Assembly (NCBI GenBank): GCA_964016885.1
Contig: OZ024752.1
Location: 40,052,001-40,116,000 of the forward strand
Direction: 5' to 3'
From: Eledone cirrhosa
Lineage: Eukaryota
Length of the DNA: 64,000 bases
The position numbers were made by a program, and so were the translations under genes. The notes below the pieces were generated by a model. The model was not told the DNA's origin. It saw only the letters and a program-made list of their open reading frames with translations, and made no database searches. Every line of letters starts with the position of its first letter. Position 1 is the stretch's first letter. Positions 1,267 through 61,670 of this stretch are shown piece after piece.

Positions 1267-1912
1267 ATACGATATTAAACAAATGGAAACTATATTTATA
1301 AAACCATATTTATTTTATTATACATATTTCAGGGATACCATATTAAAAATATGGCATGCCTTCTTCAGATAAAATACAATATATAAGCAGTTTTATAAAT
1401 AAATTTGACGTACCATAAAATATTTATCAACTTCCATTTAAAAAAGTTGGTTTGGTAGTGAAATGTTTGTAAATATTTAGTGTTAAGCACAGTTAGAAAG
1501 AAAGACGGAGAGAAGGAATAAATGTATGTAAAGAAAAACCGAGAGAGATATGGGAGAGAGAAATAGTGTTTTTCTTTACATACATTTATTCCTTCTCTCC
1601 TTCTTTCTTTCTAACACTAAATATTTACAAACATTTCACTACCAAACCAACTTTTTTAAATGGAAGTTGATCAATATTTTATGGTACGTCAAATTTATTT
1701 ATAAAACTGCTTATATATTGTATTTTATCTGAAGAAGGCATGCCATATTTTTAATATGGTATCCCTGAAATATGTATAATGAAATAAATATGGTTTTATA
1801 AATATAGTTTCCATTTGTTTAATATCGTATATCTACTCCAAAACTTGTTGAGTGTTTTATATCAGTTATAAAATATTTACTCGTAACCCAACAATTTTAA
1901 ATAAAACTTTTG
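1267..1912. mobile_element. Palindromic Penelope-like non-autonomous element in a TA tract
   Basis: Inverted arms of about 270 bp (1267-1539 / 1568-1830) plus unpaired tail; relatives at 53322-53750 and 61298-61465. Confidence 0.65.
1721..1786 (+). ncRNA. Minimal type I hammerhead ribozyme (mirror copy on minus strand 1311-1376)
   Basis: TATTTTAT-CTGAAGA-stem II AGGCATGCCATATT/AATATGGTATCCCT-GAAA-TATGTA-TA-ATGAAATA. Confidence 0.75.
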
Positions 1913-6744: not shown

Positions 6745-9700
6745 ATATAGAAGCACCATGTAAGAAATTATGGTTCAATAATTGTTGAAAACAATTTAAA
6801 ACCCAGACTCCAGTTGGATATCAAACAATCTTTTTACCTAATAACTATTGTAGGACACCTTGGGCGAATTGTGAGTGAATTTGATAGACAAAACTGCAGG
6901 AAGTCTGGATTTGTCCTGTCTATTCTTGAACTCTGTGTGTGTGTATACATATATACATACATAGAGTTTCTCAGATCTTTGAGAATATTTGCATGAATTT
7001 AATGAAAGTCGCATAAGTCATGAAAGGAAAGCTTTATTTGAGAAAGAAATTGGCACGAATAATATTGAGAATCTTCTTGGTGCATCTACTCAATTAATCC
7101 ACCATTAGCATCAATGACTGATTCAATATGATATTGATCATTCAAGATATTGATCAACCTAAAGATTAAGTTTGAAACTGAAATCAAAGGATTTCATTTT
7201 TTTGATAAAATAGATAAGTTGGAAGTTTTTAACCCAAACAGTATAAAAATACAATATTAATAATACTTACTGTACTTCATTTCGACTATTCATTTTCTTC
7301 AGAACAGTACGGAAGCGAGGCTCAGCATAGCCCCATGCTCCCATATTCTTGTGTTCTTCTTGACACCAGACAACTTTGGCTCGAGGGTATTGTGCAATTT
7401 CTTCTTTTACCAAATCAAATGGAAACGGAGAAATCTGAAGAAAAACAAAAACTCAATACAACCAGAATGTTTTTCTTTGAGAAGCCATTTCCTAACATGA
7501 TATACAATTTCTCTATAAATTTTGTAAGATTTAAAACGAAAATGTGATGTTTTTCGAAAAATTGACAAAATAACTTCAAATTTCAATTGAAGCATAACCT
7601 TTCTTATAGCCATTTTTCTTATGTGTTTCAATTAATTTTGAAAACAATTCAAACTTTGGAGGGATTTAGTAAAATAATTTTGTCATTATTAAGCCAATGT
7701 TCTTACTCCCAGGTCTCAAATAATGGGGGGGGGGGGTTTCTAGATTGTCTCCATTGATTTTTTTTTTAAGAACCAGAATTAGTTGTTTAGTTTGCATATT
7801 GAAACTCCAACCCATCCTATTTATTTTATAACGTATGGGATTTCTAGTAATGTACTTCTTGTAATGTATAATGTTATTTTAATGTTTAAAGAAAATTGTC
7901 GTATGGAAAGCTACCACTTAAAATAAAATTTCGCCGGAGACAGATTAACAAAATTTGATAAGCGTGCGGGGTAAAAGGGGGTCTGAAAAATTAATAAGTG
8001 GGGGACAATTATTTTGGACCTGGGAGTACATGAAATTATGAAGGAGGGTTTATCCCAAACCAGAAGCAGTCTCAGGCAAGTTAACATGGAAAGGGTTGAA
8101 AATAAAGTAAAAGAAAAGGGAGAAGAAATGAGTAAACAAACCTGTTCTACTCTGGCAATTGCAATTTTATCCACCAGTTTCAACTTCTCCCGTTCTTTTA
8201 ATAGTTCGTAGTAGACTTTGCCACTACAAAAAATAAGTTTCTTTACATCACGAGCATTGTTCACAGCAAGTCCATCTTCTTTAATGATACGCTGGAATGC
8301 TGTGTTGTCGGTCATCAGGTCAAAGCTAGATCGGGCTTCAGGTAGACGTAATAAACTCTTTGGAGTCATGATAATAAGCTAGAAAGGTAAGTGAAATCAT
8401 ATCAAAAACAACTGAGTTCTTCAGAATTTAGACAATGCCACCATTCTCAACAACTTGGAAATAAACTTAACCCTTTAGTATTTACATTACTCTATATATA
8501 CTATTGTATTTTTATGGTAAAGGCTTTATCTTAAATAATTGTTTCTATTTTAGGCACAAGGCCAGCAATTACCCAGTACATTACTGGTACTTTATTTTAA
8601 ATAATTATCTCACATACTATCAAATTTACGAGATTATGATATTATTTGTTTTGAGAATACCTTAAATCAGTATGAGTGGCTGGTTACAGCCGGTTTGAGC
8701 AGAAAGAGGTAAGAGAATTCTGGCTGGATACGGCCGGTTAAAATGCTAAAGGGTTAAACATTGTATATCAACATCATTTACATTACATTATTCATCATCA
8801 TTTACATTATTCTATATTTACTATTGTATTTTCACCATAAATACTTTATCTCACATAATACCGAATCAATGAGAATTTGATATTATTTATTTTAACAACA
8901 ATACCTTAACGTAAGTATGAGCGGACAGGTACAGCCAGTTTGAACAGAAAGAGGTGAGAGAGTTCTAGACGGCTACGGCCAGTTTAAATGCTAAAAAGTT
9001 AAGCGGACTCAGATGCCTTTGATAACAGTCTTTCAAAAGACAGCCAACTGAACCTATACCAAATGCTGAATTCAATAGGTTTCCAAGAGACGGCAACCTG
9101 AATAGATCAGCTTTTTGTCCTAGAAATTTTTTTTCTTTCTGCAACTGCTCACTCTTCTCCTCTATCTTTTTAGTTCTTTAATTTCACATTCTAATTTCTG
9201 ATGAAGGACTGGTATCCAAAACGTCAAGATTCTTTTCCTACTATATCAAGTGTAAAACTAATATATTTCTTCATTGTACTGTGTCATTTGCTTTGTTATT
9301 TCTGTTTACATTTTGCAGACTCATACTATCCCTCTTAAGATTATTGCCCCAAATTAGGTAAACAAAAATTTGAAAAGAAAAAAAATGTATAAAAAATCTT
9401 ACAGGTTTCCGAAAAGGAAGAGCAATTTGTCTTCTCAGTACATGGAATAAGTTGGCAGGTGTGGTACAATAACAAACAAACCAGTTGATCTCATGTAGTT
9501 GTTGCATTTCAAAACTTGAACTTTCAGGCTGTAAATATTACCAGAAATTATTTCTATTAGACATGATGACTAATATGTTCTAATACAAACAAAATGTTGA
9601 TTCAGGTCAATACTTCAACCTCCTAATGAATGTTTTGTATTAGTTTACACTTACATAAGACAAGGATTCAGTGGGAATGAGATGGAACAGATTAGATTAA

Positions 9701-12246: not shown

Positions 12247-12861
12247 TGTAAGAAGAGACGAACACAGATATATAGCTATATATGTTCACCTTCTGGCAGT
12301 CTCTGTCCCTTGTGATTTGAACACATATCTGTGTTCGTCTCTCCTTACAGTATTATAGGGCTTTGAAAAATTTTCCTCCTTGAGATATTTTAATTATAGA
12401 GGGCTTTTGTGAGTTTTTAACTCAATATATACTTTATATGTATATATATATATATATGTAGGAGGTGAGTTTTATTGTAGTACAATAAAGCAATGCAGAT
12501 ATCGGATAAGAAGCACTCTACAGTTTGTACGACTGGAGTATACATAATATATAAGATCAAAAGATGGTTAAAAGAGTTCCATGTATTTTATTATGCGCAT
12601 TTCAAAAACAAATATCATCATGCAATAATATTTGTGTTTTCATCAGATAAAATAGGAAGACATGATATGAAGGTTAAAAAACACTTGTGAATAGTGCAGT
12701 TTTATGTTGATTTAAAACTGCACTATTCACAAGTGTTTTTTAACCTTCATATCATGTCTTCCTATTTTATCTGATGAAAACACAAATGTTATTGCATGAT
12801 GATATTTGTTTTTGAAATGCGCATAATAAAATACATGGAACTCTTTTAACCATCTTTTGAT

Positions 12862-12904
<43 letters not shown>

Positions 12905-15131: not shown

Positions 15132-18100
15132 AAGAGAGAAAGAGAAAGAGAGAGAGAGAGAAAGAGAGAGTTAGTTCCACAACAAATTAACATAAACCAT
15201 ACTTGAGAACACGCATTTCACCCAAGGATTCTTCAACTCGTGAATGGTTATGGATAACCATACACGAGTTGAAGAATCCTTCAGATGAAACAAGTGTTCT
15301 TAAATATGGTTTGTTAATTTGTTGTGGCACTAACTCATTCTTTGGACCGAGTCTCTACCAACTTTGGATATAACCTCCATGTCTTTCACTACTATATATT
15401 ATGTTGTACGGGCCATTACAAGGCCAACAAGTTAGGCTCAATCTACTGAAACTGAAAGCAGTAAGAATATAATACATAAAAAGTTAAGCTTCTGACAGGA
15501 TCAGCTGGAGGGAGTATTTGAGGGTTCTGCCCCCACGACCCTCTCAGGAATAAGTGGGTGAAGAAGAAAAGCTTACCTCTGTGTAACTCAAAATCTTCAG
15601 GTGGCAAACTGAAACTCATTCCAATGTGTTGTAACGTTTCTTCATCAATACCAGTCAGAGGAGATTTCATAGGATCTCTACCTTCAAAGAATCCACTCCA
15701 AGGAGAATCCAACCAATCCCGGTTACGTACAGCTGTTTCCTTCTTCGAGGCTAAGTGGGCTTCTTCACAGATCTTATCATATTTAGCTACTTCATCCTTA
15801 GTAAACAAAAAAAAATGATACTCAATCAAATCTGTATCAAACTGAAGTTCACAATTACATGCTTCCCGAAATACGCCAAAACTACACCTGACGTACCCCT
15901 TCCATACACATGCACACACGTGTATCATGACTCATGCACTGTTCATTTTCCTGATGTTTGTACATTACCCTATGTACTATACATACACTTTTTGATGAGT
16001 TGTAGTGCACCTGAGCACTGTACACAATATTTCATTATTATTATTATTATATACATGATATGAGAGATGACATAGGACTGAGTTGACTGGCAATGTGCCA
16101 TAATACAAAAAACTAACGAAATATGCCTGCCTCATTTCTTTCCAATCTCCGTAAGTCCCCCATACACTACCATGTAGCACTGCTGTTCACACACAAGCAT
16201 CAAACAATTTGCCTTTCCCTGAGGAAGAAACCCTTTCTAGCGCCTTTAACTTTTTCCAGCCCTATATTTCTTTCCTCTATATTGCTTTCTCACTTCCTCT
16301 CTCTCCCCTTCTACCCTTCTCTGGAAGAAATCTGATAAGTTTGGACCTGGAGAGGGGATGGGCGCTGCCAGATTTTAAAATGCCCAAGAAATGCCATATG
16401 CCACCATGGCGACCCTACAACTCCATCAGGAGTTGCAGGATCAAAGATAGAAGGATAGAATGTCCCTTGTAGAATCAGACCATTCTAAAACATTGTCAGT
16501 TAAATCTATAGGAGACTGTTTTAGGGGCTCAGTCAGTTTCCATTTTTTTTTTAAACTGGCCTTTTAACCTCCCTCCTCCCTTTTCTCTCCACTGTAACCT
16601 TCTGAACTAGATTAAAACTCATCAAAGCTGACTGACAGATTCAAATATATATATATATGACATTTTCACCAATATCCTCTAAACTCTATCAAATAAGAGC
16701 TTATGCTTTACTGGCTAAATATTGAGGAATTTTCAATTGAACACATTGTCTTGTTTCCTACAATGATGTTTTCATCAGAAAAGTAAGTCTTTAAAATTTT
16801 GAAAAAGTTTTCATCTAATAAAAGAAAAAAATGGAAACCCTGTTTTATTTCAATTAGAGGAAGTGAAACTGGTAACTAAAAGAGGAGTTATTTCCCTTGT
16901 ATAGATAAGAAGGAATTTACGCATTAATAAACAAATAAAACAACATGCAATTTTAAAAAGCTTTTCAATGTCTTTTGGCTCAATGTGACACCAAAACATT
17001 TAAAGAGTTAATTGGCAAACAATAGCTTTTGGTACAACACTCTTCATAGAATCTGTTACAAGTATACAGAAAAAAAAAAAGAAACCTTATATGAAAGTGA
17101 CATTACTACATACCTCATATTCCTGTTGAGACACAATTCCTGAATGAATCAATCTCTCAGCATAGGAGGCTAATACTGTTGGCTGTTTGGCAATTTTTTT
17201 ATACATAAGAGGTTGAGTGAACATAGGTTCGTCAATTTCATTGTGTCCACTTCGCCTGTAGCACACCTGTAAAACATACATATATGATCTACTATCACAT
17301 TTGCAGTTGTTATTTTCTAGATTAATATATACAGAGAGGTAATGCATGTAGAAAGAAACTATTTAGTGGAAGAAAGTTTGTTGTATTTTATTCTTCAATG
17401 ATTATATGTAAGTTTAAAACTGGTAACAGTTTTAAAAATATAAAATGAATATCAGAATGGTAAGCTACTTAAAGTAGGGTTACAAATAAAAAAAATTTAG
17501 CATACAGCATATCCCACACTTCTTCATTTTAAAATATTGACACAAATTTAAATCTGTGTATTACTATTTTAACACTTGAAGATCAGTTCCAGTTTTTCAG
17601 ATCAGGAGAAGAAACACACAAAAAAAAAAGCTTTGCAAAGAATATATCTGTATGACTTAACTAAGCTAAAATAAAAATAAAAAAAGGATTACAAAATATT
17701 GCATATCATTTCATTTTATGTCTGCTTCTCCCTGCTTGCAAGGGTGGGACGGGAACTGATTCTGGCTTGATTTCTACAGCTGGATGCCCTTCCTGACACC
17801 AACCTCATTTACAGTGAGTGCTGGGTGCCCTTCCTAACACCAACCTCATTTACAGTGAGTGCTGGGTGCTTTTTTGCCGTGGCACCTCCACGACCACTTT
17901 ACAGTGGAATGATAGGGACCCCAGTCCCTATCATCTCATTTCTACAGCTGAGTAAACTGGAGCAATGTGAAATAAAGTGTCTTGCTCAAGGACACAACAC
18001 ATCACCCGGTCTGAGAATTGAACTCTCAACCTTTCGATTGCAAGGCCAATGCTCTAACCACTAAGCCATGTACCTCCATATACACATTGAAAACACGGAA

Positions 18101-21100
18101 TTTACCAGATCAATCACAACGTCTTTGTTGAAGCGATGTCGCCATTCAGAGGCTACTTTGCAAACATATATCACAGCTTCGGGATGGTCGGCATTCACAT
18201 GAAATATTGGAGCATTGATTACTCGAGCCACATCAGTCGGGTAAGGTGATGACCGCGATACACGAGGATCAGTTGTAAAACCAATCTGAAGGAAAACAGA
18301 ACAAAGAAAAATTACCCCTTTAGCATTCACATTACTCTATATATACTATTGTATTTTCATGGTAAAGGCTTTACCTCACATAATATCTCACATAACATTT
18401 ACATTACTCTATATATACTATTATATTTTCATGGTAAAGGCTTTACCTCACATAATATCTCGCATAACATTCACATTACTCTATATATACTATTATATTT
18501 TCATGGTAAAGGCTTTACCTCACATAATATTTACATTACTCTATATATACTATTGTATTTTCATGGTAAAGGCTTTACCTCACATAATTATCTCACATAA
18601 CATTTACATTACTCTATATATACTATTATATTTTCATGGTAAAGGCTTTACCTCACATAATTATCTCACATAACATTTACATTACTCTATATATACTATT
18701 ATATTTCCATGGTAAAGGCTTTACCTCACATAACATTCACATTACTCTATATATACTATTATATTTCCATGGTAAAGGCTTTACCTCACATAACATTCAC
18801 ATTACTCTATATATACTATTATATTTTCATGGTAAAGGCTTTACCTCACATAATATCTCACATAACATTCACATTACTCTATATATACTATTATATTTTC
18901 ATGGTAAAGGCTTTACCTCACATAATTATCTCACATAATATTCACATTACTCTATATATACTATTATATTTTCATGGTAAAGGCTTTACCTCACATAATA
19001 TCTCACATAACATTCACATTACTCTATATATACTATTATATTTCCATGGTAAAGGCTTTACCTCACATAATATCTCACATAACATTCACATTACTCTATA
19101 TATACTATTATATTTCCATGGTAAAGGCTTTACCTCACATAATATCTCACATAACATTCACATTACTCTATATATACTATTATATTTCCATGGTAAAGGC
19201 TTTCCCTCACATAATTATCTCACATAATATTCACATTACTCTATATATACTATTATATTTCCATGGTAAAGGCTTTCCCTCACATAATTATCTCATATAA
19301 TATTGAATCTATGAGATTTTGAAAGTATTCATTTTGAGAACAATACCTTAACATCAGTTTGAGTGACCAGTTACAGCCAGTTTCAACAGAAAAAGGTAGA
19401 GAATTCTGGCCGGTTTTGGCCGGTTTGAACATTAAAGGGTTAAGTTAAAATCTATTCAAAGCCAAAGGTTCATCAGGCCAGTGTTTATCATAGGATTATC
19501 TATCTTTCACACACACACACACACACACACTCTTTCTCTCTCGCTGTAACTAACGTGTTGACAGACTTGCATTACATAAAGTCTTTTTTTTTTAAGTGTT
19601 ATCACTTCCATCCTGACATCACAACTTTTCCCTTCTCCCCTTTTTCCTCTCCTACATATATGTTGTCACAGACAGACAGGCAGAGAACAGCTCTTTACTC
19701 CTTCCTTTTTCCTCTCCTACATATATGTTGCAACAGACAGACAGACAGAGAACAGCTCTTTACTCCTTCCTTTTTCCTCTCCTACATATATGTTGTGACA
19801 GACAGACAGAGAACAGCTCTTTACTCCTTCCTTTTTCCTCTCCTACATATATGTTGTGACAGACAGACAGACAGACAGACAGAGAACAGCTCTTTACTCC
19901 TTCCTTTTTCCTCTCCTAGATATATGTTGTGACAGACAGACAGACAGAGAACAGCTCTTTACTCCTTCCTTTTTCCTCTCCTACATATATGTTGTGACAG
20001 AGACAGAGAACAGCTCTTTACTCCTTCCTTTTTCCTCTCCTACATATATGTTGTGACAGACAGACAGGCAGAGAACAGCTCTTTACTCCTTCCTTTTTCC
20101 TCTCCTACATATATGTTGACAGACAGACAGGCAGAGAACAGCTCTTTACTCCTTCCTTTTTCCTCTCCTACATATATGTTGACAGACAGACAGACAGACA
20201 ACAGCTCTTTACTCCTTCCTTTTTCCTCTCCTACATATATGTTGTGACAGACAGACAGACAGAACAGCTTCTCTTTTATAATACAGATTAATCTCTATTG
20301 GAAATTACAATATAGTAGAACGTTGATGAGTTACCTGATTGTTAACAACTATGTGAATAGTACCATGGGTTGTATACATTGGTAGATCACTGAGATGAAA
20401 TGTTTCATAGACTACTCCTTGGCCAGCAAAGGCAGCATCTCCATGGAGCAGTACACTCATCACCTTAAAATAACAACAAAGTAAGAATAAAACATGGAAA
20501 ATAATTTGACAAAAACACATCACAGTAATAAACCATTTTGAAATCTACTATCACCTATCTCGTCAAACTTATACCAACATTTTTTCATTTTACGTCCGCT
20601 TTTTCCCTGTTTGCAAGGGTGGGACGGGAACTGATTCTGGCTTGATTTCTACAGATGGATGCCCTTCCTAACACCAACCTCATTTACAGTGAGTGCTGGG
20701 TGCTTTTTTGCTGTGGCACCTCCACGACCACTTTGCAGTGGAATGATAGGGACCCAGTCCTATCATCTCATTTCTACAGCTGAGTAAACTGGAGCAATGT
20801 GAAATAAAGTGTCTTGCTCAAGGAAACAACATCACCCAGTCTGAGAATTGAACTTACAACCTTTCGATTGCAAGGCCAATGCTCTAACCACTAAGTCATG
20901 TGCCTCCATGGACATAAAATAATGTAAGGTGGTCATGCTGATGACAAAAATGAGAAAGTACCCAGTCCTACCTGTAAGGTGATCGTGCTGTACAGTAACA
21001 CAGAATTATTGTCAGAAGAGAGAAATAAATATGCCAAAAATGTATAAAATATCATCCCAATGGAAAATGTTACAGAATCACTGAAGAAATTAAAGCATTT

Positions 21101-36100: not shown

Positions 36101-36734
36101 CAACTATGAAACAGCTATACAACAAACAAAAGGTCCTCTCCAAACACATCCATAACTGCATTCTGGAAGATACATAGTCACCAACCCAACAGATCATCAC
36201 TGAAACAGCTAAAAGTACCATCAGTTTCACCAAGAAGAAAAAGCAGAACAGGCTTGACATCAACATCAACTATGATAAAATCAACCAGCATAGTGACATA
36301 AAGGAAATAGCTCATATATTTCATGAACAAGACCTAGTTTTCTAACATGAAGGAATATTTTGCAACACAAATGTACTTCTGAGAAAGATGTGGGAGAACA
36401 AAACAGGATCAGCTCCTGAAGATTTTGGTAAATTGGCAAAGCAAGTCTTCAAGAACAAAGATCTGAACCAAAATACAAAATTGATAGTCAACCTACATTG
36501 GCATCAATCCATTACCAAAGTAATACACAGTTTCAAAACCTGAAGAAGAGGAGGAAAAACAATAAAAGACTCAACTTAATCAAGTACTACCTTGCCATCT
36601 ATATCACATGTTCCATGCAAAAATATATATATATATATATATAAAAAATTTGGGACCCCGACGGCTGAGCTCCAGCTGTTTCAACAGCTAGATCCGAAAT
36701 GTATATATGTGTGTGTGTATGTGTGTGTGTGTCT

Positions 36735-40200: not shown

Positions 40201-43200
40201 ATCATTTCGTAGTCTAATAACATAGCCAATTCTCGCTCAAATGATCTCAAAGTTTAACAAAATGTATAAAAACTAACCAAGTTTAATGTCAAATGATTTC
40301 TTTTTTTTTTTTCAGGTTGAAGAATGTTGTTCACTAGAAATGAAAAGGTGATAGAATATGCTCAAACACAGTCAATGATGTCAGTTTTTATACATCCTAA
40401 TGATACTGTGCATGATATTGTACTTTTAATAAGTTTCATCATACAAGAGCAACCATATATGCTTGACAATAATAGTGGCTGGAAAATGTCAGGTGAGGTC
40501 AATTGGAAGACTTTTGTGAAAAATTAAAAGAAGAAAATAAACATAAGTTGCATGTAATTTTGGTTATCGAGTGCTTAGCAGGCTAACAATTAAGAAATTT
40601 TACTGACAGCAACAAACAATACAATCAATTCATCCATTGACACAATTTTTCTGATTCTTTGTAGATTCTGAAACAAAAACAGATGAATATTGGGAAGGTT
40701 TCTTTCATATAACAAAACTCAACTTTTCTTTTCAGACTTTCTGGGACCAATGAGATTGGCATGACTGATGTTCTTGAACATTTATAAACTAATATGGGAA
40801 GGGAGAACATTTTAGAGGGGTGATGTTCTGACAATGAAAGACAGAGAAGTGCTTTGTACAAGGGCTCAGAGCAGAGTAAGGTGGGTGGTGAGACTGGGAG
40901 AGATAAGTGATTTAAGTAAGCTTCAGTGTAAGCGGCATAAAACCATCCTGTTCCAAGGGACAGTAGCGGTAGAAAACAGAGAAAACCTGGTGAGAACTGA
41001 TCTCAAATCGATGTGACTCACAGAAGAGATGATGTGCTGAAAAGGACCTGTCCAACCCATGCAAGCATGGAAAAGCAAACGAAAAACAATGATGTTAACA
41101 GGATAATTATAAAAAGGAAATATTACACACACACACAAAATATTCTTGTCAAATTTAGATTCCTCTTATATAATAAAGCTACAGGTTAACAGCTATCATA
41201 AATAACTTTTCATATTTCAGATAACATGGCTATTAATAAATCAACTACAGACAGCTCAATGATGTTTGTTCTTCAAAGACATGAAAGTACTTGAGCAAAA
41301 CCCAAGTATTATATGAAATGAGATGTCTCCCATACCTATCTTTTTATAGCCTATTTTAGCTGTGAGGTACATAATTTATGTTCAGTTTCATTGCTATATA
41401 TGATAGATTTTTGAAGTTTAGACATCATGGCGCTGATGAAAACTGTTTTTGGCAGTATCGGTAGGGGATCGAACGCCATGCTTTGCAGCATAGAGTTACA
41501 GTCCTTTGCGGTTTGAGTTCAAATCTCGTCGAGGTTAATTTTGCCTTTCATTCTTATGGGGGTCGATAAAATAGAGTACCAGTAATGCACTGGGGTAATT
41601 GCTGGCCTTGTGCCAAAAGTAGAAACAATTATTATTATTACTAAGGGCAGTGGATTGGTAGTATCAGTAGATCGTCAGATATGCTTTACAGCATAGAGTT
41701 ACATCCCTTTACATCCTGAGTTCAAATCCTGCTGAGGTTCGCTTTACCCTTTCATTCTTATAGGATCAATAAAATAAAATACCAGTAATGCACTGAGGTC
41801 AATTTAATTGACTTCCCCCTCACCCAAAATTGTGGGCCATGAGCCTAAATCAGAAACCATTGTTATTGGCAGGGTCATTGTAGTGAAATCAATATTATGG
41901 TTGCCTAGCAATGAATAAATTCCAGGTTCAAGTCTTGCAAGAGGATTTGTTGATCGATTCTGTCTCAGATTGCTGCTTATCATATATAATGCCATCTTAT
42001 ATAACATGGAGGCACATGGCTTAGTGGTTAGAGCATTGGCCTTGCAATCGAAAGGTTGTGAGTTCAATTCTCAGACCGGGTGATGTGTTGTTTCCTTGAG
42101 CAAAACACTTTATTTCACATTGCTCCAGTTTACTCAGCTGTAGAAATGAGATGATAGGGACTGGGATCCCTATCATTCCACTGCAAAGTGGTCGTGGAGG
42201 TGCCACGGCAAAAAAGCACCCAGCACTCACTGTAAATGAGGTTGGTGTTAGGAAGGGCATCCAGCTGTAGAAATCAAGCCAGCATCAGTTCCCGTCCCAC
42301 CCTTGCCAGCAGGGAAAAGTGGACGTAAAATGAAATGATAACACATGTATAACCTATTTGGATGTTTGTTTGTTTTAAGCTGATGAATTGGGTGAATTAT
42401 CAGAGCAGCCCTTGCTCTGGCTGAGTTCAAATCCTGTCATGGGTGACCTGTGTGTTGCATCCTTCCTTCAGTAGGTTGCCAAAGCACTGAATTATTTGTG
42501 CAGTGGCCTGCATGATTATCAGTAGTTTACTGAATAGAATTTAATTACAAAAATGACATGCAACAAGCTAAATGTCAAATAAATAAAACTGACAGTCATT
42601 GGTTTGAAAATTCTGTTGAACTTAAAATAACCAAGCAACACACACACACTGGGACTTAATTACTGATGTCTCACTAATTAGCTTCAAATGATTACTTTCT
42701 TAATACTTATTTTACCAGGCCATATGATACTTTCAAGCCACTTAGCTTTGTCTAAGCATATAAACATTATGAGCATAAACAATTAATTTATATTAAAATT
42801 GTTACTGAATGACTTTTGTTAAGTAAATATTAATTCTAATATCTTCTAATATATTCTACACCCTAAATAATTACAACAATAATATAAAAGAGTTAATAAA
42901 CAAAAATAAATTTAGTTCTAATATTCATTCTTTTATCTTTTTAGAGATTGTATTTTCCCCCAAGTTGGCATATGCTGGATGAGTTTGAAAATCAGAACTT
43001 CTACCGGTATATATAAAACAGACTTCCTGATAAGTACTCTTCCTAACACAAACTAATATATCAGATTAAATAAAGTAATAATTATTAATTACTTGTGTTG
43101 ACAACAACAATTACACTACAACCAATGTAATAATACTCTTGTGGGATAGTTAAACAATAACATTTAAAAAAAGGGTCAATTCTAAAGTTAAAATAAATAA

Positions 43201-46200
43201 ATAGCATAGTCAAGAAACATTCAAGGCAGTACTAGATAAGTCAATATTGTAAAGAAAATTTGAAATTTCGTAAACGAGAGTAAACAAAACAATTGCAGAA
43301 ATCCATCTATGTTTGAGTAGTGTAACACGATATAATAGGGCAAAACTAGATTTTCTTTTCTATTTTTTGCAACTAGATTTTTCAAAGCCCCCAGTCCACA
43401 CTGTAAAATGGGTCATGATAGTGACACAACAAAAAGCATCCAGCCCACACTGTAAAGTGGTTATGTAGGTGTCCCTACAAAAAGCACCCAGCCCACACTG
43501 TAAAGTGGTCATATAGGTGTCACTACAAAAAGCACCCAGTCCACACTGAAAATGTGGTTGGCATTAGGAAGCACATCCAGCTGTAGAAACCAAGCCCAAA
43601 TCAGTTCTTTATAAACAAGACATGGTCACCTGATCAGACATTTCTCACAACAGGACAACTCGTCTAACCTATGCTAGTGTGGAAAAATGGACATTAAACA
43701 GTGATAAACAGTAAAATGAACTACACTGAAATATTACTTTTAATTGATGTCTTCTCTTTGTTACTATTATTTCTTTCAACCATTATATACCTTCTTTTTG
43801 TTGGTATGACAAGGAGAAAAAGCATTTCCTAGAGTGAGATGATTGCAATTGGTGCAGTAAATGTGAAGTTGAAAAGTTCCATGTGTATTTATTTAAGGAA
43901 CAATTGAAAAGAAAGACACATTATGCTTAGTTCAGAAACCAGACAGCAAACATAATATAACTATTGAGAAGCAGGCAGGTGGGATAATATGGAGATGAAA
44001 TGCTTCTAGCAAGTATTGAATTACAATTTTGGGTTATAAAGCCATATAGAATCATTGGGAAAAGGAATTTCAACAACTAGTTATTTTTTTCTTAATGTTT
44101 AAGAAAAATTGTGCTGAGTATAGAGCAAAATTTTAGCTTTCACTGGTTGAGAAATCTAATAAATAGTTGATGGAAGACACAGGAAAATGTAATTTCATAA
44201 CCACAAAAGAAAATTAAGTAAATTGAAGAGATTTTTCTTAATATTTAAGAAACATTACCGATATCTCTTTTTAATGACATTTAAACAGATTACATAGAAA
44301 AGATAGGAGTATTGATACATTGAAAAAATATATTCCATGAAAAATTAAATGCATAAATATTTGCAGTCATTTTCAAATATCACAAAGGCAAAACCAATAT
44401 ATGGTTTTTAGGAGTTTAGCTAAAACACTTAAGCTTCTACAAATCATAACCAAATTAGTTTAAACACAGAAGAAAATATTTCAGATACAATGCATGATGA
44501 TATCTTCTTGATTGTCTTTCACACAATCTCTCTCTCGCTGTATTTCTCCCTCAACATTTTGTAGGGGGAAAATAATTTTGGTTTATGAACATTTCAGTTG
44601 CCAAACAGCCTTCAGAAACAAATTAAGTTCATGAACTGAGGTTCCACTGTAAATCTAAGATGATGAGTACCTTCAAATTTTGACATTAACCCTTTAGCAT
44701 TTACATTACTCTATATTTACTATTGTATTTTCACAATAAAGACTTTATCTCTCATAATATCGAATCTATGAAGTTTTGATACTATTTATTTTGAGAACAA
44801 TACCTTAATGTCAGGAACAGAAAGAGGAGAGAGAATTCTGGCCAGATATGGTTGGTTTAAATGCTAAAGGGTTAAAGAATTCATGGTGTCTGAAAACCTC
44901 TCTCAATATATAGCTCATCAAAATTCAGAGCCCTCTCTGTAACACTTCTGTTAGAATGCTTCATGCTTCTTCAGAGACCCAATAAAACATTTACCTGCAT
45001 TAGTTGTAACTATTGCAAAACCATGCATCAAAACCATACAAAAATTGCATCACTTTTCAATTTCCATTCAGATAATATTTTCCTGGCTTTTATTTGACAT
45101 TCCTACAATCAGAACTATTTTACAATTCCAGTAAACAATTTATGGAAAGTATATTCATTAACCCTCTCAGACCGGGCCCCCCCCCCCCCTCTCTCAAACT
45201 TTACACCTGGACTCCTGAGCAAAAAATAAATAAATACACAGCTCAATAGTAATGATTGCAAACAAACTAATGGACAGAATCAACACAAGGCACAGTAAAT
45301 GTGTCTACCCACCCTCCATCTAGATTTACATCTCCACACCGCCCCCATCAGTATCTGCTGTGCGAGGGTCACACTGAATTTGTTTACCTGAATTGCTACT
45401 TTCCTCACCACTTTCACAAGTTTCATTGTCCAAATCACTCATGTTGTCTACATAACGGTAAACTTGTTGAAATTCTTGCTTATTTTCGGCCATAGAATAA
45501 ATATCATCATTAATTCCCTCAAGTTTAGGCCTTGTTTGTTTACCAGACAAAGTGTTGGGTTCATCACACTCGTTTCATTGCAAGAAGATCCATTTTCTTT
45601 TTCAATTAAAAACAAAGTAAATATAGGGGACGCCATTAACAATGAGTTGTAAACACATGACTACAAAGCAGCAACATGATTGGTTGTCTATTTTTAGTAT
45701 TTTATCTTTTTCTACATGTGTTCTTCATTAGAGCTTTAATGGGAATCCAGTAGAGATTATGTTTAGGCTATTACTGATATAGCGGGAACATAGCACAACA
45801 GTGTTAAGGGAGAAAGAAAACTTAAACCCACCCATAGCTAGCAATTTTTTTAAGACAGAACAGAAATTGTCAATGTAAGATATAGAAACCGCAACAATAA
45901 AACTTTGAGGCTAAACCTTTGATCAAGATCATTCATTAACATCAATATTCAAATATATATTATACAGCTAATAAAATAGAAAAAAAATGTTTAATCTATG
46001 TTGGTGAATTAAAGACAGTTTCTAGAAGTAACTGAAAAATAAATGGTTAGTTTTAATTATTAAGTTCCTAAGTATATAAGCAAAAACAATTATTTTAAAA
46101 TCAAATAAAAAATAATTCACTCCAAGAAGAAAATAGCAATCATCACCTGTTACTAAATAAACAGAAAAGAATGCAATTGCCTTAAATTTCAAACATAGCA

Positions 46201-49200
46201 TTGGATAAAAATGTATCACAATAATAGAGAAACATTTGAGATGTTCATTTTACAATTTTATAATACTGATTTAAACCAAAATATGTATCATACATAGATG
46301 CTAACAGAGAACGTTATGGAATTTTTACAAATTAAAAACTTTAGAAAAATGTGAATTATACAAAATATTATTAATATAAATTATCTTCTTATAATGATTA
46401 AGATTATAGATTTTTTTAATTAATGAACAAAGAAATAAATATTTCTCAATTAATGAAAGAACATTAATATATTCTACCTACTGAAATAGAAGCATAAATG
46501 ACATTCTAAAAGTTACCAATTCATTAATTTCCACAATATTCTCTATATAAAACATGACACACTGTATCTATTCTACATTATTTAAGAGCAAAAAAAAAAA
46601 AAAAAAATATCTAAACCTTTATCTCACCTGATACGACCGGATAATCGACTGCACAGAGAGATGATGTTCAATGATCTTCTGGCTGGGCATAGCTGGAGCG
46701 GGCACCATCTCAGTACTGGTGGGAACTGGAGCTCCACCTAATGTAGGTGGGCGCATGTAGGCAGAACTAACTCCCCGTGCTGTATTTCGAAAATACACAT
46801 CCCAAGACTAGAAAAGTAAAAAAAAAAACAGTGGGGGGGTGTGAGAGCATGGTGGGATATAAAATGAATTGAAGTAAGGTGGTAGCATAATGGAAGAGAA
46901 GAGAGTAATGACAAAAGTGACAGAGTTTGATGGATGAGGTAGCTATGTATCATATTCATCGTCGTTTAACGTCCATTCTATATAATAATAATTGTTTCTA
47001 CTTTTGGCACAAGGCCAACAATTATCCCACTGTATTACTGGTACTTTATTTTATCGACCCCGTAAGGATGAAAGGCAACGTTAACCTCGGCGGGATTTGA
47101 ACTCAGACCATAAAGGGCCGTAACTCTTTGCTGCAAAGCATGGCATCCAACCCTTTACCGATAGTGCCAATCCACCGAATAATAATTGTTTCTACTTTTG
47201 GCACAAGGCCATCAATTACCCAGTACATTACTGGTACTTTATTTTATCGACCCCGTTAATGAAATTATATATACAACAAAATACTTAAATTATTTTATTT
47301 TAAAAAAACCTTAAAGTTATAACTACAGAAAATCGTAGAGTATATATAGCTGTTCTTAAAATAAAGATTTATGAACAAACATGACAAATTATAAAAGAAT
47401 AATAATATCAATCAGATGCAGGATAGTCTAGGCTAACCCCAAATGTTGGGGTAAATACATTTTGCATCCAAACATAACCACTTCATATATATTTTAAACT
47501 TAATTCCCTAAAATATATTACTGGCATTTTCCCCCTTGCCATCAGAAGACAAAAAGAAAACCTGCTTGCGTCCTATCCACCAAAAGTATGAATATGACAA
47601 AAAAATATATTGTTTACACAAGCCATGAATAAATCATCATCACCGTTTTACGTCCGTTCTTCTACGTTAGCATGAGTTAGACGGGTTGTCCTGTTGTGGG
47701 CAGTGTCTGGTCGGCTGACCATGCCTTGCTCATACAGGAACTGATTTGGCTTGATTTCTACAGCTGGATGCCCTTCCTAACACCAACCTCATTTACAGTG
47801 AGTGCTGGGTGCTTTTTCGTGGCACCTACATGTCCACTTTACAGTGTGGGCTGGGTGCTTTTTTGCCGTGGCACCTCCACGACCACCTTGCGGTGGGGGG
47901 TGTGGGGGCATATTGTCTATATGCTTCAGCTTGTACCCATGGGAGGTCGGGAACTCTGTATTACTCCGTGACGCCAGAGGTGTAATTGAGTAAGGTCGGC
48001 TTTTATCACCTCATCCCAGGTCATCTTGGGTCTCCCCACTCCGCGTATAGTTGTATATTAACTTTTAACCCAAACCTTTTTTTCTTCAAAATAACAGTGT
48101 GTCTTATATTCCGAAAAATATGGTACATGAGAATTTAGACTATTAGTACTGAAGAAATTGTTCTGAAAAACATCCAAAAGAGAAAAAAAAGAGTCTATTC
48201 TACACAAATTTTAATGATTTTGTTATCAATTCCACTTTCTAGAACAAATATATTTGTGTTGATATATTAGAAATATGACAATAATAATTGCATTGAATAA
48301 AAAAAAAATATTATTGATAATTGTTTGTAGTCTCTTTAATTAGCAGTTGTATTTAATTTGAAAGATGTTAAAATAACAGAAATAGAATGCCAAGGAGAAA
48401 CTATGAATTACATACACACACATACACAATGCTGGGCACTGCAGGGGTCGAAATGTTTTGATTAGAATCCATACGTGTGAGGAGCAGATCAATATTGGGG
48501 TTAGGTCTATCACATTGATAAAGACCTCGAGCTAATCATCTGTGGAACATATGAGGTGTTATCAAATCATTTCTGAACTAGTTCTGTAGCACACCAACAG
48601 ATGGTAACACAAAAATGTATCATACTTAGAAATAAAGTATGGGTTTGCATCATAAAAGGCATCTGGCCATGGAATAATGCCTTAGGTCTTATCCAAACCA
48701 TTCTATAATGGAAATCATCATTTTTTAACCTCTATTTTCACACAGACACACACATACACTTACCAATGATCGTGTGTGTGTGTGTATATATATATATATA
48801 TTTATAGTTAACCTACAGTCAGTAGGCCCCTCCAAACCAAACATACACCTCAACCCACTACCCCTACTCCATCCTCCCACTCCCGCCAACACCACCCTTG
48901 CTCTATAAAGTTATGTTGGTACCACAACATCCAGTCCAAACTAATGAGATCATGTAGGTGTCACGACAAAAAAAACAGTCTACACTGTAATGTGGTCGTG
49001 TAGGTAACAAGGTAAAAAGCTCCCAGTCCACACTGTACATGTGGTTGGTGTTAGGAAGGGCATCCAGCCGTAGAAAACCTCCCAGATAGTCCTATACGAG
49101 CGAGACACAGTCACCCGATCAATCTTGCCTCAAATGGGACAACTCCCGTCTAATCCATGTTAGCGTGGAAGATAGACGTTAAACGATGATGATTATATAT

Positions 49201-52200
49201 ATATATATATATATAATCATCATCGTTTAACATCTATCTTCCACGCTATATAAGGCGTGTGGCTGAGTGGTTAGAGAACTGGATTCGCAATCGTGAGGTT
49301 GTGAGTTCGATTCCTGGACCGGGCGATGCGTTATGTCCTTGAGCAAGACACTTTATTTCACGTTGCTCCTTCTACCTGGAGTTGCGACCGATAGATAGTA
49401 TTAGCAATTGGAAAGACCAATGGAAACACTGTTTCCTCGGTCCGATTTGACGAAAGTCGATCGACTGTCGATATATATATATATATATAAATCCTTTCCT
49501 TTTAAAAGTATATAGAAGTTATTTACAACTTTTACTCCCTATGTGACTTAATCAGCAATGTATAGAGGGGGGGGGGGGACATGCCCATATGAGCTATGCA
49601 TCACATCTACTTATACCACATACATCCAAACATCTTTCTATGCCACCATTCACCACTCCCCCTTCCTCTTCAAGACCCCTTCTCATCTATCATGCTCTCC
49701 TGCCACCCACTACTCGTTCCCTCACCAGCAATATGCAGCTATTTCTTCCATCATACACTTACTCCTTTCTGTCATTACTGCCACCCCCTCTATTACTCGT
49801 CACTCACTCTCTCTTCCATTACGCTCCCTTTGCAACTACCTTACACTATTTCATTCAGTTTATTCCACCATGCTCTCACACCTGCTGCTTCTCTCATATT
49901 TTCTTCTAATCACCACCACCCTCGTCATGCACAGAGAAAACATTGCATGTTGAGTACCCCTTCAGTCTTGCAAAATTCAATGCAAACTCACTAGTGGTGG
50001 CACCTCGATAAAATACACCCAGTACACTCTGTAAAGTGGTAGTGGCAGTGTCACAAAATACACCCAGAACACTCTGTAAAGTGGTAGTGGCAGTGTCACA
50101 ACAAAACACCCAGCACACTCTGTAAAGTGGTAGTGCTGGCACCATGACAAAATACACCCAGCACACTCTGTAAAGTGGTAGTGGCAGTGTCACAAAATAC
50201 ACCCAGCACACACTGTAAAGCAGCAGTGCCAACATCACAACAAAACACACCCAGTACACATTGTAAAGTGGTAGTGCTGGCACCATGACAAAATACACCC
50301 AGCACACTCTGTAAAGCAGCAGTGCCAACATCACAACAAAACACACCCAGTACACATTGTAAAGTGGTAGTACTGGCACCATGACAAAATACACCCAGCA
50401 CACTCTGTAAAGCAGCAGTGCCAACATCACAACAAAACACACCCAGTACACATTGTAAAGTGGTAGTGCTGGCACCATGACAAAATACACCCAGCACACT
50501 CTGTAAAGCAGCAGTGCCAACATCACAACAAAACACACCCAGTACACATTGTAAAGTGGCAGTGCTGGCACCATGACAAAAAGCATCTTAGACACTCTCT
50601 AAAGTGGTTGGCATGAGAAAAGGCATCTAGCTACAAAAGCCATGTCAAAAATGGAATGCACGAGCAAAATATGGTTCTCCAACTTCTCATGTTTCAGACA
50701 ATGATGAACTGTCTAACCTATACAAACATAAAAAAAAAACAGGTATAAAATGCTGATGAGTACACTACCATTATGCCAACAAACCCACCCTGCTTTTTCC
50801 GTTTTGGCGTAATGGTAGTGTACTATGAGAGGTGTGGGTTCAACTCCCATGTCAGCTGATATCCATCTCTTTTCCATTCAGTGGGTTTAGACACCAGACA
50901 TGGAGCCACATGGCTTAGTGGTTAGAGCATTGGCCTTGCAATCGAAAGGTTGTGAGTTTAATTCTCAGACCGGGTGATGTGTTGTTTCCTTGAGCAAGAC
51001 ACTTTATTTCACATTGCTCCAGTTTACTCAGCTGTTAAAATGAGATGATAGGGACAGGGGTCCCTATCATTCCACTGCAAAGTGGTCGTGGAGGTGCCAC
51101 GGCAAAAAAGCACCCAGCACTCACTGTAAATGAGGTTGGTGTTAGGAAGGGCATCCAGCTGTAGAAATCAAGCCAGAACCAGTTCCCGTCCCACCCTTGC
51201 AAGCAGGGAAAAGCGGACGTAAAATGAAATGATGATGATGATGATGATGATGACTATTTAATCATTGTTACACCATAGTCTCTATTTCTATTCTAAACTT
51301 CATTCCCCACATTCCAAACAAAAAAAAAAATATGGTTGAAAGTGAAAGCAGTCAAACGTGAAGGTCATTAAGTGTATAGTGGCTTTATATAAACATACTG
51401 TTTACATTTGAAAGCATTATTTCACTTCCTGCAAAATTTAGTTTTTCCGTTTTCATTCATGATAATGTAATTAAAAATGGAAACCAAAATATATTCATAC
51501 ACTTTAAATGCAGATGAAATATGTATGTATACATGTGTGCATTTAAGTAAAAAAACCCCACTAAAGTTCATATCCCTATTCAATCTCATTATTGTGGATT
51601 GGCAGTATCGGTAGAGGGTTGGACGCCATGCTTTCCAGTATAGTTACGTCCCTTTATGGTCTGAGTTCAAATCCCGCCGAGGTTGACTTTGCCTTTCATC
51701 CTTACGGGGTCGATAAAATAAAGTACCAGTAATGCTCTGGGTAATTGCTGGCCTTGTGCCTAAAGTAGAAACAATTATTTTCTTTAACATTGTTACCAAT
51801 CCAACCCAAAACCAGCTCTGGTTCTATAAAATAAAGTATGCCATTTTAAAGGTTTCCAATTTATATTAAAATCTTCCAACATAATTTTATATAAAAATCT
51901 TACATTAAGTTATATCTTAGTAATGAAATAATTGTTTCTACTTTTGGCACAAGGCCAGCAATTATCCCAGTGTATTACTGGTACTTTATTTTATCGACCC
52001 CGACCCCCGTAAGGATGAAAGGCAAAGTTAACCTCGGCGAGATTTGAACTCAGTACGTAAAGGGACGTAACTGTGCTGCAAAGCATGGAGTCCGACCCTC
52101 TACCAATAATGAAATAATTGTTTCTACGTTAGGCACAAGGCCAGCAATTACCCAGTGCATTACTAGTACTTTATTTTATCGACCCCGTAAGGATGAAAGG

Positions 52201-53750
52201 CAAAGTTAAGCTCGGCGGGATTTGAACTCAATAATGAAATAAAGAATAATGTTAATAAATCCCTTAAAATTCTTCATTAATTAATTGACGTAGAGGGCGG
52301 TGGATTGGCAGTAACGGTAGAGAGTCGGACGCCATGCTTTCCAGCATAGTTACGTCCCTTTACGATCTGAGTTCTAATCCCGCCGAGGTTGACTTTGCCT
52401 TTCATCCTTACGGGGTCGATAAAATAAAGTACCAGTAATGCTCTGGGTAATTGCTGGCCTTGTGCCTGAAGTAGAAACAATTAATTAATTGAAGTAGAGT
52501 GTATTTCATTAGAAATGGGTTCATGTTTCCTTATCTACCACACCTTCCAATCCTAGCCCAAACATCACCTTGCAAATAACAATAACTCTTACATATTACC
52601 TATTCACACACCCACAACACAAGCCATGACACTGATTTGGTCACATACACACACAGGTATATACACCACTCCTACAAACAAATCAGTTGCTTTAAAAGAG
52701 GATTACATCCATGTTTAGGCACCATTTTGATTCAGTCAATCAAATTAACTTATTTTCTTGAAATCTGGTACTTAATTTTATCCATCTCTATTTTGTCAAA
52801 CTGGTAAATTATGGGGGGAGACACACGATGTGTGTGTTTGGTCCCACAACAACAAACGCTCAGTCTACACTGTAAAGTGGTCATGTAAGTATCGCGACAA
52901 AAAACACCAAGCCCACACTGTCAAGTGGTCATCTTGGTGCCACAATAAAAAACATCCAGTACACACTAAATGTAGTTGGCGTCCAGCTGTAGAAACCAAG
53001 CCAAAATCAGTCCTGTATGGGTAAGATGCGGTCATCTGATCTGGCTTGTCTTACAATAGGACAACTCGTCTAACCAATACTAGTGTAGAAAATGGACGTT
53101 AAACAGATTTTTTATATATATATATAACGAAGGAAATGTGGTAAGGAACCAGGTGGACCATAACGCACCAAAGTACTCAATACTTAGGGTAGTAGAGTGG
53201 GTAATAGGAACGAGTAGGACCCCGACGGCTGAGCTCAAGCCGTTTCGACGGCTAATTCAGGACTAGAATTAGCCGTCGAAACGGCTTGAGCTCCTACTCG
53301 TTCCTATATATATATATATATATGATATTAAATAAATGGAAACTATATTTATAAAACCATATTTATTTCGTTATATATATTTCAGGGATATCATATTAAC
53401 AATATGTTATGCCTTCTTCAGACAAAATACAATATAAACAGTCTTATAAATAAATAGATACGACATACCTTTCAATCACCTTGTATTTGGGAGGTTGATA
53501 CAAGGTGATTGAAAGGTATGTTGTATCTATTTATTTATAAGACTGTTTATATTGTATTTTGTCTGAAGAAGGCATAACATATTGTTAATATGATATCCCT
53601 GAAATATATATAACAAAATAAATATGGTTTTATAAATATAGTTTCTATTTATTTAATATCATAAATATACTCCAAATACTTGTTGAGTGCTTTTATATCA
53701 GTTATAAATATTTACTCGTTGTTAACCCAACAATTTAAATATAACTTTCC

Positions 53751-59140: not shown

Positions 59141-61463
59141 AACACATACATGTATAAAGATATATATATATAATCTTTATACATGTGTTTATATATATAT
59201 ATATCTTTATACATGTATGTGTTTATATATATATATATCTTTATAAATGTATGTGTTTATATATATATATCTTTATACATGTAGGTTTATATATATATAT
59301 ATCTTTATACATGTAGGTTTATATATATATATATCTTTATAAATGTATGTGTTTATATATATATATATCTTTATAAATGTATGTGTTTATATATATATAT
59401 CTTTATAAATGTATGTGTTTATATATATATATATCTTTATAAATGTATGTGTTTATATATATATATATCTTTATAAATGTATGTGTTTATATATATATCT
59501 TTATAAATGTATGTGTTTATATATATATATATATATCTTTATAAATGTATGTGTTTATATATATATATATATCTTTATACATGTATGTGTTTATATATAT
59601 ATATATATATCTTTATAAATGTATGTGTTTATATATATATATCTTTATAAATGTATGTGTTTATATATATATATCTTTATACATGTATGTGTTTATATAT
59701 ACATATATGTGTGTGTGTGTGTGTGTGTACCTACATGTATATGAATGAGATTATTAGATGAACATTAAAACGTAGGTCTTCCAAAAACCCTTAAAACACA
59801 TTTTCATTCGAAGTTTGGGACATACGTTTGTCCCATCCATATATATTTATAATTTTCCTAAATAATTAATTATTGCTAGGAAACTTATAAATATATATTT
59901 ATATATATATGTCTATATTTTTTATTCTGTAAGCATATTATATTATATTATTATATTCATAAAAAAGTAATAATTGTTTCTACTTTGTGGCACAAGGTCA
60001 ACAATTAACCTCAGTGCATTACTGGTACTTTATTTATCGACCCCGTAAGGATGAAAGGCAAAGTAATAATTGTTTCTACTTTAGGCACAAGGCCAGCAAT
60101 GACCCCAGTGCATTACTGGTACTTTATTTTATCGACCCCCGTAAGGATGAAAGGCAAAAATCAACCTCGGCGGGATTTGAACTCAGATCGTAAAGGGACG
60201 TAACTCTATGCTGGAAAGCATGGCGTCCGACCTTCTACCGATACTGCCAATTTAAAGTAATAATGCTGATTTTTTTTTGGGGGGGGGGGGGGATAAAATA
60301 TTTATACATATAATTGTTTCTACTTTAGGCACAAGGCCAGCAATTAAATCCAGTGTATTACTGGTACGTTAATTTATACATTATATAATGTTTGTAACAT
60401 CTTCTCATTAACTTCCCACGTGTTATGTAAGACGATTGCTTTCAAACGATTGCTCTCGAACATTTAACGAAGCAAGGTGGGGCTTATATAATAACATATT
60501 TTTTTTAAAAACTCTTTATAGATGTCAAGAGTATTTGAATAATTTATAATTGTGGGTTTTTTCCTGATGAGCAATTGGGAATTACGAGCTAACTACAAAA
60601 AAAGTGAAGTTATTTATTAGATAAATGTAAAATAGACCTTGATAGCAAGAACGACAACTCTTGAATCACAAAAAAAGAAATGTGACATTGTTACAATTTG
60701 ATTATTTTATATAAGTATTATTTAGACGCTTCTGGATAAAATATTATTTATATTTAACTATTTATAAGAGATTAGAAACATTCAAAACTAAATTAATTTG
60801 AAAAAAAAACAAAAAAAAAAACACAGGTGGTAATTAAATTAAAACAAAATCTTAGAAGATAATTTAAGAATTTTGCTTAAGGAACCAGTAACGCTAATCA
60901 CTTTATAGGTTTCCCTTTAATGGGTTTTTCCATTTTTAATTATTTCAAATGTACATCATGCACGAATGAACACTTGTCTATTAACATTAGTAAAATTAAT
61001 TAATTATTTAATTAATTAATTTGAAAAAAAAAACAAAAAAAAAAAACAATGCCTGTGTATTACATATCAATGTTGGCAAGCTAATGATACAGTTCTTCAA
61101 CAATGTTTACAGGGAAGAAAAGTACCAGTAATACACTGAGTAATTTTGCTGGCCTTGTGCCTAACATAGAAACAATTATTTCATAAGATACACATACACA
61201 CACAGTAGCATGGTAGCTTACTAACAAGTTTTTTCTGTTACATAATGAAGGGTGTGTGTATGTGCGTATATATATACATATATAGATATATATATATACG
61301 ATATTAACAAATGGAAAGTATATTTATAAAACCATATTTATTTCATTATACATATTTCAAGGATACCAAAAGTTAAATTATGGTATGCCTTCATCAGACA
61401 AAAACAAAATATACCAGTTTTATAAATAAACATTGACGTACCCTTTCAACTTGGTATAATGAA

Positions 61464-61500
<37 letters not shown>

Positions 61501-61670
61501 TATATAAACTAATATATATGATGAAACACAAATACCAACATATCTGTATTTATTTGCAATATATATACAGATATGTTGGTATTTGTGTTTCATCATATAT
61601 ATTAGTTTATACACGGCTCAGAAATATTTCTTTCTTTGAGCTAATTTCATTGTAAAAGAATTCATTACAC

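Follow-up and report, generated by a model that had tools for sequence, protein, structure and literature searches.

Described Penelope-like elements related to the locus

Penelope-like elements (PLEs) of the Hydra clade carry a C-terminal endonuclease (EN+), target (TA)n, possess hammerhead ribozymes and occur with inverted truncated copies whose tail is often present at one end only; Hydra-1_Obim and Penelope-13_HM are listed there, and Penelope-13_HM has a hammerhead on both strands by way of an inverted copy, according to the available part of the source (PMC8557442). The minimal hammerheads of metazoan PLEs form opposite-strand pairs about 100-700 bp apart and show low dimer activity in vitro (PMC4209133, as far as its available text goes). 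For Poseidon PAc of Anolis, the available text of PMC11167929 describes in vitro that both strands are cut and extended, that two reverse transcriptase (RT) starts bound the tail, and that uncut RNA is the main template; the hammerhead is active only with protein and is dispensable for insertion. The origin of the inverted arms and one-sided tails, as well as the role of the hammerhead, are called open in the available parts of both sources (PMC8557442, PMC11167929). Publications therefore already cover Hydra-clade elements and their hammerheads, insertion into (TA)n, tails on one side only and opposite-strand hammerheads in inverted copies. What is added here is a count of how the two kinds of 3' end, A and B, are paired; our literature search, which covered mainly openly accessible papers, returned no such count and no proposal of two-ended priming for PLEs.

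Organization of the hairpin at 1267-1912

The window is the whole 64,000-nt stretch of Eledone cirrhosa DNA analysed here. Its hairpin at 1267-1912 contains an inverted repeat with arms at 1267-1485 and 1612-1830 (99% identity in the window); by arm alignment the full extents are 1267-1566 and 1567-1832, with a 10-nt deletion and four substitutions between them. The left arm (1267-1566, minus strand) corresponds to the 3' pseudo-LTR of a larger parent element, copied in inverted orientation and 5'-truncated; it ends at site B within the TA array, has no tail and is 95.7% identical to 7699-7996 of the longer genomic copy L033. The right arm (1567-1912, plus strand) is a sense, 5'-truncated copy of the same pseudo-LTR that carries the 10-nt deletion near 1610, ends at site A and includes the tail; it is 93.9% identical to L033 7722-8081 (another comparison with L033 gave 98%) and 88-95% identical to the pseudo-LTRs of copies with an intact ORF. 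Both arms align colinearly with the parent 3' end, in L033 as well as in the intact-ORF copies. Site B (1828-1832, plus strand) is a TATAT stretch at which tail-less copies pass into (TA)n, and is likely an RT start site. Between sites B and A lies the unpaired tail (1833-1912, plus strand), which in the parent leads towards the ATG and measures 88 nt between anchors there and 85 nt at the window locus. The original prediction of a palindromic element thus stands for the inverted repeat and falls for the symmetry. Degenerate (TA)n flanks the insertion on the left (200-1266) and on the right (1913-1960), and 72 of 78 ends in related copies have TA-rich flanks, in keeping with the predicted insertion into (TA)n.

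The locus is colinear with the parent, its family has two fixed 3' ends that are paired one A with one B, and the flanks are TA repeats. We conclude that 1267-1912 very probably consists of two 5'-truncated, head-to-head copies from an autonomous PLE of the Hydra clade, both taken from its 3' pseudo-LTR, a judgement that covers the best explanation jointly: the identity of the parent, the truncated head-to-head arms and their origin from two cDNAs. An artefact of assembly or reads would fit the low-complexity flanks, as would a motif arising by chance in AT-rich DNA, and contigs from three related sequencing runs of one sample cover both arms with none over 1555-1599, which is uninformative for a repeat; this explanation is extremely improbable against the deletion and substitutions that distinguish the arms, the tail on one arm only, the same plan at dozens of other loci, and the near absence of hammerhead motifs from shuffled sequence (given below).

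MITEs and fold-back DNA elements have a fixed length and symmetric terminal inverted repeats. This class was rejected, as the arm lengths and junctions vary here and the tail is one-sided. A retrozyme array was rejected as well: metazoan non-LTR retrozymes (10.64898/2026.07.22.740005; see also PMC7229834) resemble the locus in their type I hammerhead, non-coding copy and link to PLEs, but they are head-to-tail tandem monomers, whereas the arms here are head-to-head truncated ends colinear with a coding element.

The autonomous parent element

Longer copies of the arm extend into coding sequence. Copy L033 consists of a hammerhead with tail, a broken ORF, a 3' UTR of ~1.5 kb, a second hammerhead with tail, and (TA)n. 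A genomic search with the L033 protein gave 25,960 candidates, 129 of which were scored, and an intact ORF of 737-742 aa is present in 19 of the 20 regions fetched around long frames. The parent plan is a pseudo-LTR, a 740-aa ORF, a 3' UTR of about 1.5 kb and a further pseudo-LTR, in a unit of about 3.8 kb; of the 19 intact copies, 12 have a sense hammerhead 236-237 nt ahead of the ATG and 14 have one 3.5-3.7 kb beyond it. A partial-tandem pseudo-LTR, an inverted 5'-truncated copy and the tail are all found in L091, L033, L090 and others. For the youngest subfamily no intact ORF was found, the best intact copy being 94.7% identical, and the window gave no tblastn match to the parent protein.

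The model of the parent protein has a pLDDT of 89, and its best Foldseek match is telomerase RT (E 1.5e-9; structural Z 16.1). The modelled C-terminal domain aligns best with I-TevI (Z 9.0, rmsd 2.1, 88 aligned), followed by T4 EndoII and UvrC, its Foldseek match being weak (E 0.15), and the endonuclease residues Y, Y, G, R, H, E and N are invariant in 18 rows. The ORF is accordingly predicted, from these structural models, to encode a telomerase-like RT joined to a GIY-YIG nuclease. Pfam searches with ORF pieces, intact ORFs and 15 homologues returned nothing meaningful, the PDB sequence search gave no match, and a profile reached retron RT only at E 0.018. The earlier expectation that a genome-wide copy search would reveal a parent with a Penelope RT and a GIY-YIG endonuclease is thereby borne out by the intact ORFs, with both folds predicted.

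The parent has RWR, DKT and CxCX5C as its linker and RT motifs, followed by the C-terminal EN; among 88 aligned homologues RW[KR] occurs in 78, DK[TS] in 87, DKG in 1 and CxCX5C in 73. The EN lacks CCHH: one non-conserved C lies between the two tyrosines, CDLC precedes E702 and CRH follows N714. By these motifs, rather than by a tree with named Hydra sequences, the parent appears to belong to the Hydra clade; among named homologues, an unannotated protein of Argonauta hians (39%) comes closest. As in the Hydra clade described in the available part of PMC8557442, a single ORF combines RT and C-terminal GIY-YIG domains with RWK-type, DKT and CxCX5C motifs, CCHH is absent while CxxC and CxH stand beside E and N, the targets are (TA)n, and a canonical pseudo-LTR hammerhead and an inverted 5'-truncated copy are present. 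Unlike the elements of that account, the unit is ~3.8 kb rather than generally <3 kb, the tail 88 nt rather than 30-40, and the first motif RWR rather than RWK (PMC8557442). The hammerhead also differs from those described for the clade, in the part of the account available, by its longer stem II (13 bp with a C-pyrimidine mismatch) and by a stem III that is an even 8-nt palindrome, and by eye it is unlike the one listed for Hydra-1_oBim. We therefore describe the element as a new Hydra-clade member, young and abundant, in which both the unit and the tail are longer and the ends follow a measured rule. Other, diverged Hydra-like frames with RT and endonuclease lie near TA arrays at L034:3040-5272 and L040:4645-6400.

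Hammerhead motifs in the window and the genome

In both arms the type I scan finds an 8-bp stem I, CUGAAGA, a 31-nt stem II, GAAA, a 6-nt insert, UA and stem I'. Type I motifs occur seven times in the window, whereas 100 block-wise dinucleotide shuffles contain 0.02 on average and never more than 1. The right-arm hammerhead (1721-1786, plus strand; C3 at 1729, H17 at 1778, predicted cut after 1778) is supported by the scan, conservation, covariation and folding; it is built from stem I (1721-1728/1779-1786), the core (1729-1735), stem II with a C-C mismatch (1736-1766), GAAA (1767-1770) and a self-complementary stem III (1770-1777). The left-arm hammerhead (1311-1376, minus strand; C3 at 1368, H17 at 1319) was found by the motif scan. 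The prediction of a hammerhead in each arm of the hairpin is therefore correct, with H17 at the predicted 1778 in the right arm, and the scan and the alignment of relatives agree with a minimal type I ribozyme with self-complementary stem III. The proposed hammerhead search succeeded with our own type I scan and drew a blank with Rfam, where none of the 149 matches at E<=1 is a hammerhead family and hairpin microRNA look-alikes stay below threshold. The core CUGANGA / GAAA / UH is complete together with stems I and II, and the missing Rfam match is a matter of model coverage.

Two details of the original prediction require qualification. Only the left arm has the perfect stem I TATTTTAT/ATAAAATA; a U-G wobble is present in the right arm and is the norm for the family, and at this position the scan hits have G in 66 cases and A in 2, the first-listed A hit being the window locus itself. 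The right arm of the copy at 53322 does have the compensatory change claimed for it, from A-U to G-C, but among 26 aligned relatives only 3 have G-C at that position and 7 have G-U.

The copy at 53322-53750 is a second two-armed insertion, from a sister subfamily, with the B arm on the left, the tailed arm on the right and hammerheads at 53421 (-) and 53563 (+); it is 95-98.6% identical to the pseudo-LTRs of several intact-ORF copies. The scan adds two loci to those noted before: 61291, a single truncated arm of a third subfamily (61296-61442, minus strand) that ends at site B and has its hammerhead C3 at 61397, and 12547, a two-armed, diverged family C (12456-12865) with a different stem II, a stem III AUGCGCAU and the tail on the left. 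In the genome, the exact 42-nt core plus stem II is present in 632 copies (control, 0), and the right arm as query yielded 1,323 candidates, of which 40 were scored, at 98-100%. The same TA arrays also harbour unrelated families of type I hammerheads, whose stem III inserts are different and likewise self-complementary (L009:638-757, L023:1853-1968, L034:5237-5376, L083:1014-1114, L110:865-965, L119:200-338 and others); altogether 74 variants were counted in 219 hits from 132 loci plus the window. With the minimal PLE hammerheads, as given in the available text of PMC4209133, the ribozyme shares the type I form, a long stem II, a palindromic stem III, a proposed dimer and many variants per genome; it differs in having a stem I of 8 bp plus closing helix instead of 4-5 bp, and a stem III insert of 6 nt where theirs is absent or 2 nt.

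Conservation and predicted folding of the hammerhead

The set for conservation analysis was collected by BLAST rather than by motif and contains 106 distinct homologues, or 25 after thinning at 95%. Excess conservation of the core and covariation of the stems across copies had been put forward as the sign of a genuine ribozyme, and both are present: in the 25 representatives variation is 0.004 in the 11 core columns against 0.088 in the flanks, 0.124 in stems and loops and 0.48 at N7 (core constraint p 0.0003; p 0.003 with all 106), and stem II shows double changes at all 11 pairs among 26 hand-picked relatives. Stem I is 98.6% paired in the same relatives, a percentage that, like the other paired percentages, is partly circular because the 26 rows are mostly scan hits required to pair; it has a double change at only one of its eight pairs. 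Stem III is self-complementary in all 26 aligned relatives, and the covariation score was reached by none of 500 shuffles. Within stem II, the C of a C-C or C-U mismatch (window 1739/1763) is invariant in 26/26 while neighbouring pairs covary, so that a tertiary contact is possible. From these patterns of variation we conclude that selection acts on the hammerhead in the parent.

In the isolated arm stem II is predicted to form, with stem I in its active register 3% of the time; the active fold lies 2 kcal/mol above the monomer minimum, and the stem III duplex is weak (-2.2 kcal/mol, predicted). RNA read through the whole element is predicted to fold into a hairpin of -399 kcal/mol, in which the probability of stem I is about 1e-56 on either strand, and opening this hairpin into the hammerhead fold would cost 87 kcal/mol. 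A full-hairpin transcript is thus predicted to bury both ribozymes and to escape cleavage after 1778, and in these models the hammerhead of 1267-1912 is a passenger in a truncated pair. In the parent, tandem transcripts are its likely substrate, which it would cut as a dimer or with the help of protein.

It had been proposed that the locus belongs to a non-autonomous system encoding a hammerhead on both strands. Neither part is upheld: both arms are the colinear, truncated 3' end of the parent with 5' starts that vary between copies, and each arm carries the ribozyme on the element sense strand only, its presence on both strands of the DNA being a by-product of inversion. A dedicated palindrome that moves as a unit with a working hammerhead on each strand would account for the abundance of short palindromes, many of them alike in length (46 of the first 100 listed exact matches sit in head-to-head pairs), and finds a parallel in family C, with its apparently fixed 5' start and no RT piece in 20 loci. 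However, in longer copies the arms continue into the parent's 3' UTR and ORF, and the predicted cost of opening the hairpin is at odds with working ribozymes. Copies differ from one another in their junction sequences, so that the palindromes arose independently rather than by copying of one master, and we consider this explanation very improbable for 1267-1912.

Family C and other repeats in the window

Family C (12456-12865 and L093-L112) has a stem III duplex predicted at -10.5 kcal/mol. Its ends, found with a tail-free query and read by eye, are A+B in 13 of 14 pairs and A+A in one (L099); the long arm starts at about the same base at its 5' end in the loci viewed, and tblastn with the parent protein found no RT piece in 20 loci. 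Family C may be a true short non-autonomous element that uses the Hydra enzyme.

Several other repeats were observed in the window. A GC-richer, two-armed, TA-flanked family at 53127-53305 and 56583-56771 (with a piece at 36653-36690) has matches in 35 of 202 loci and is negative in the type I scan. A small near-perfect hairpin in TA repeat (61516-61598) has an arm that starts like the family C core and stem II, and has no further match among the loci compared. An 84-nt near-perfect hairpin around a TA run (49163-49246) has matches in 16 loci and a microRNA look-alike match below threshold. A dispersed 260-nt repeat (17820-18079, 42006-42265, 50900-51159, 1-199 and 20656-20909; 95-97%) with a weak tRNA-like match is probably a SINE. 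Tandem arrays have units of 48 nt (2079-2817, 50127-50654, 43377-43598), 72 nt (18311-19296) and 65 nt (19603-20324); the 48-nt arrays come after the head of a common dispersed repeat.

Pairing of the ends A and B

Copies of the element have one of two 3' ends: B lies about 50 nt beyond the cut site, and A follows 88 nt later. In the parent both sites carry a few bases of AU repeat. All 30 loci found with a tailed query end at A, 29 then passing into TA repeat and one running into the ORF. Head-to-head junctions were found 72 times (33 unresolved), and all 39 with both ends visible are A+B, although B+B could not appear for many of these pairs because they were found with tail-containing queries. 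A blind set was accordingly assembled from the first 100 of the 632 exact matches, its pairs picked by the hammerhead match alone and irrespective of ends; 23 pairs were obtained and 2 previously viewed ones omitted. Scripted typing gave 17 A+B, 2 A+? and 2 B+B, and when these last four were read by eye, three proved to be A+B and one a true B+B, so that 20 of 21 blind pairs are A+B (binomial 1e-5). The exception is L183, a B+B pair that has a TA run in the middle.

Within one insertion, both arms mostly carry the same subfamily variants, as would be expected if the cDNA of the same parent snapped back and copied itself, with an endonuclease or repair trimming one end at B. The 5' starts pile up at P3520-3559 (60/160), where a local inverted repeat lies about 120-150 nt before the cut site, in line with such a fold-back; the arms are within 8 nt of each other in 8 of 39 pairs, and in Craig et al. 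(PMC8557442) the tail is attributed to resolution by the endonuclease. The relative lengths of the arms point the other way, as the tail-less arm is the longer one upstream in 20 of the 39 pairs (the tailed arm in 11), reaching 2.6 kb against 0.9 kb in L031. A tailed arm is not copyable from a tail-less one, nor a long arm from a short one, and fold-back is therefore excluded for pairs with a longer tail-less arm; RT starts at both ends of the tail in vitro also speak against it (PMC11167929, available text). As an explanation of 1267-1912 we regard self-copying as improbable and prefer two separately primed cDNAs. In a further pair, L009 (C8:45819020-45822245), the two arms disagree at 16 of 118 positions, and one of them is identical to the family.

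None of 160 5' starts falls within 3 nt of the hammerhead cut, in a set of loci mostly chosen with hammerhead-spanning queries and with only 33 starts at P3600 or later; the copies therefore give no sign of cut RNA as the template. Single-sequence folds of four tail regions showed hairpins before the end sites no better than those of shuffles (z +0.73 to -0.55), and short motifs in the tail regions are common to different families.

A proposed mechanism of two-ended priming

We propose that the nuclease nicks the (TA)n target and that the freed DNA ends pair with the 2-7 nt of AU repeat at sites A and B of the RNA. Two cDNAs would then be primed from both ends of one cut, as suggested by the one-A-one-B pairing, one at A and the other at B; both would stop early and be joined head to head. 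The priming order is read from finished insertions, from which an origin of the inverted arms in two cDNAs is likely, and the A/B rule itself probably reflects two-ended priming. The model fits what the available text of PMC11167929 gives for Poseidon PAc, namely two internal starts at the bounds of the tail, extension of both strands and a predicted dimer. PAc is of a different clade, however, and its ATG lies inside the hammerhead, whereas the hammerhead here precedes the ATG by 236 nt; its starts are non-homologous to the target, whereas A and B match (TA)n; and no strand difference is reported in that text, whereas the two ends of an insertion here use different sites.

A stronger version, in which Hydra-clade integration is obligately two-ended, with an enzyme dimer engaging A and B and stem III holding two template RNAs together, is a tentative idea and rather unlikely to be correct. 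The RNA-pairing role of stem III, akin to a retroviral dimer signal, is a guess: the two arms copy the same stretch, stem III is invariably self-complementary and no copy starts at the cut, but the duplex is weak and it is the catalytic core that is conserved.

As a ribozyme discovery the locus is ordinary. Its value lies in the element as a test system: the family is young and has intact ORFs, its insertions number in the hundreds and are nearly identical, and the pairing of one A with one B is strict.
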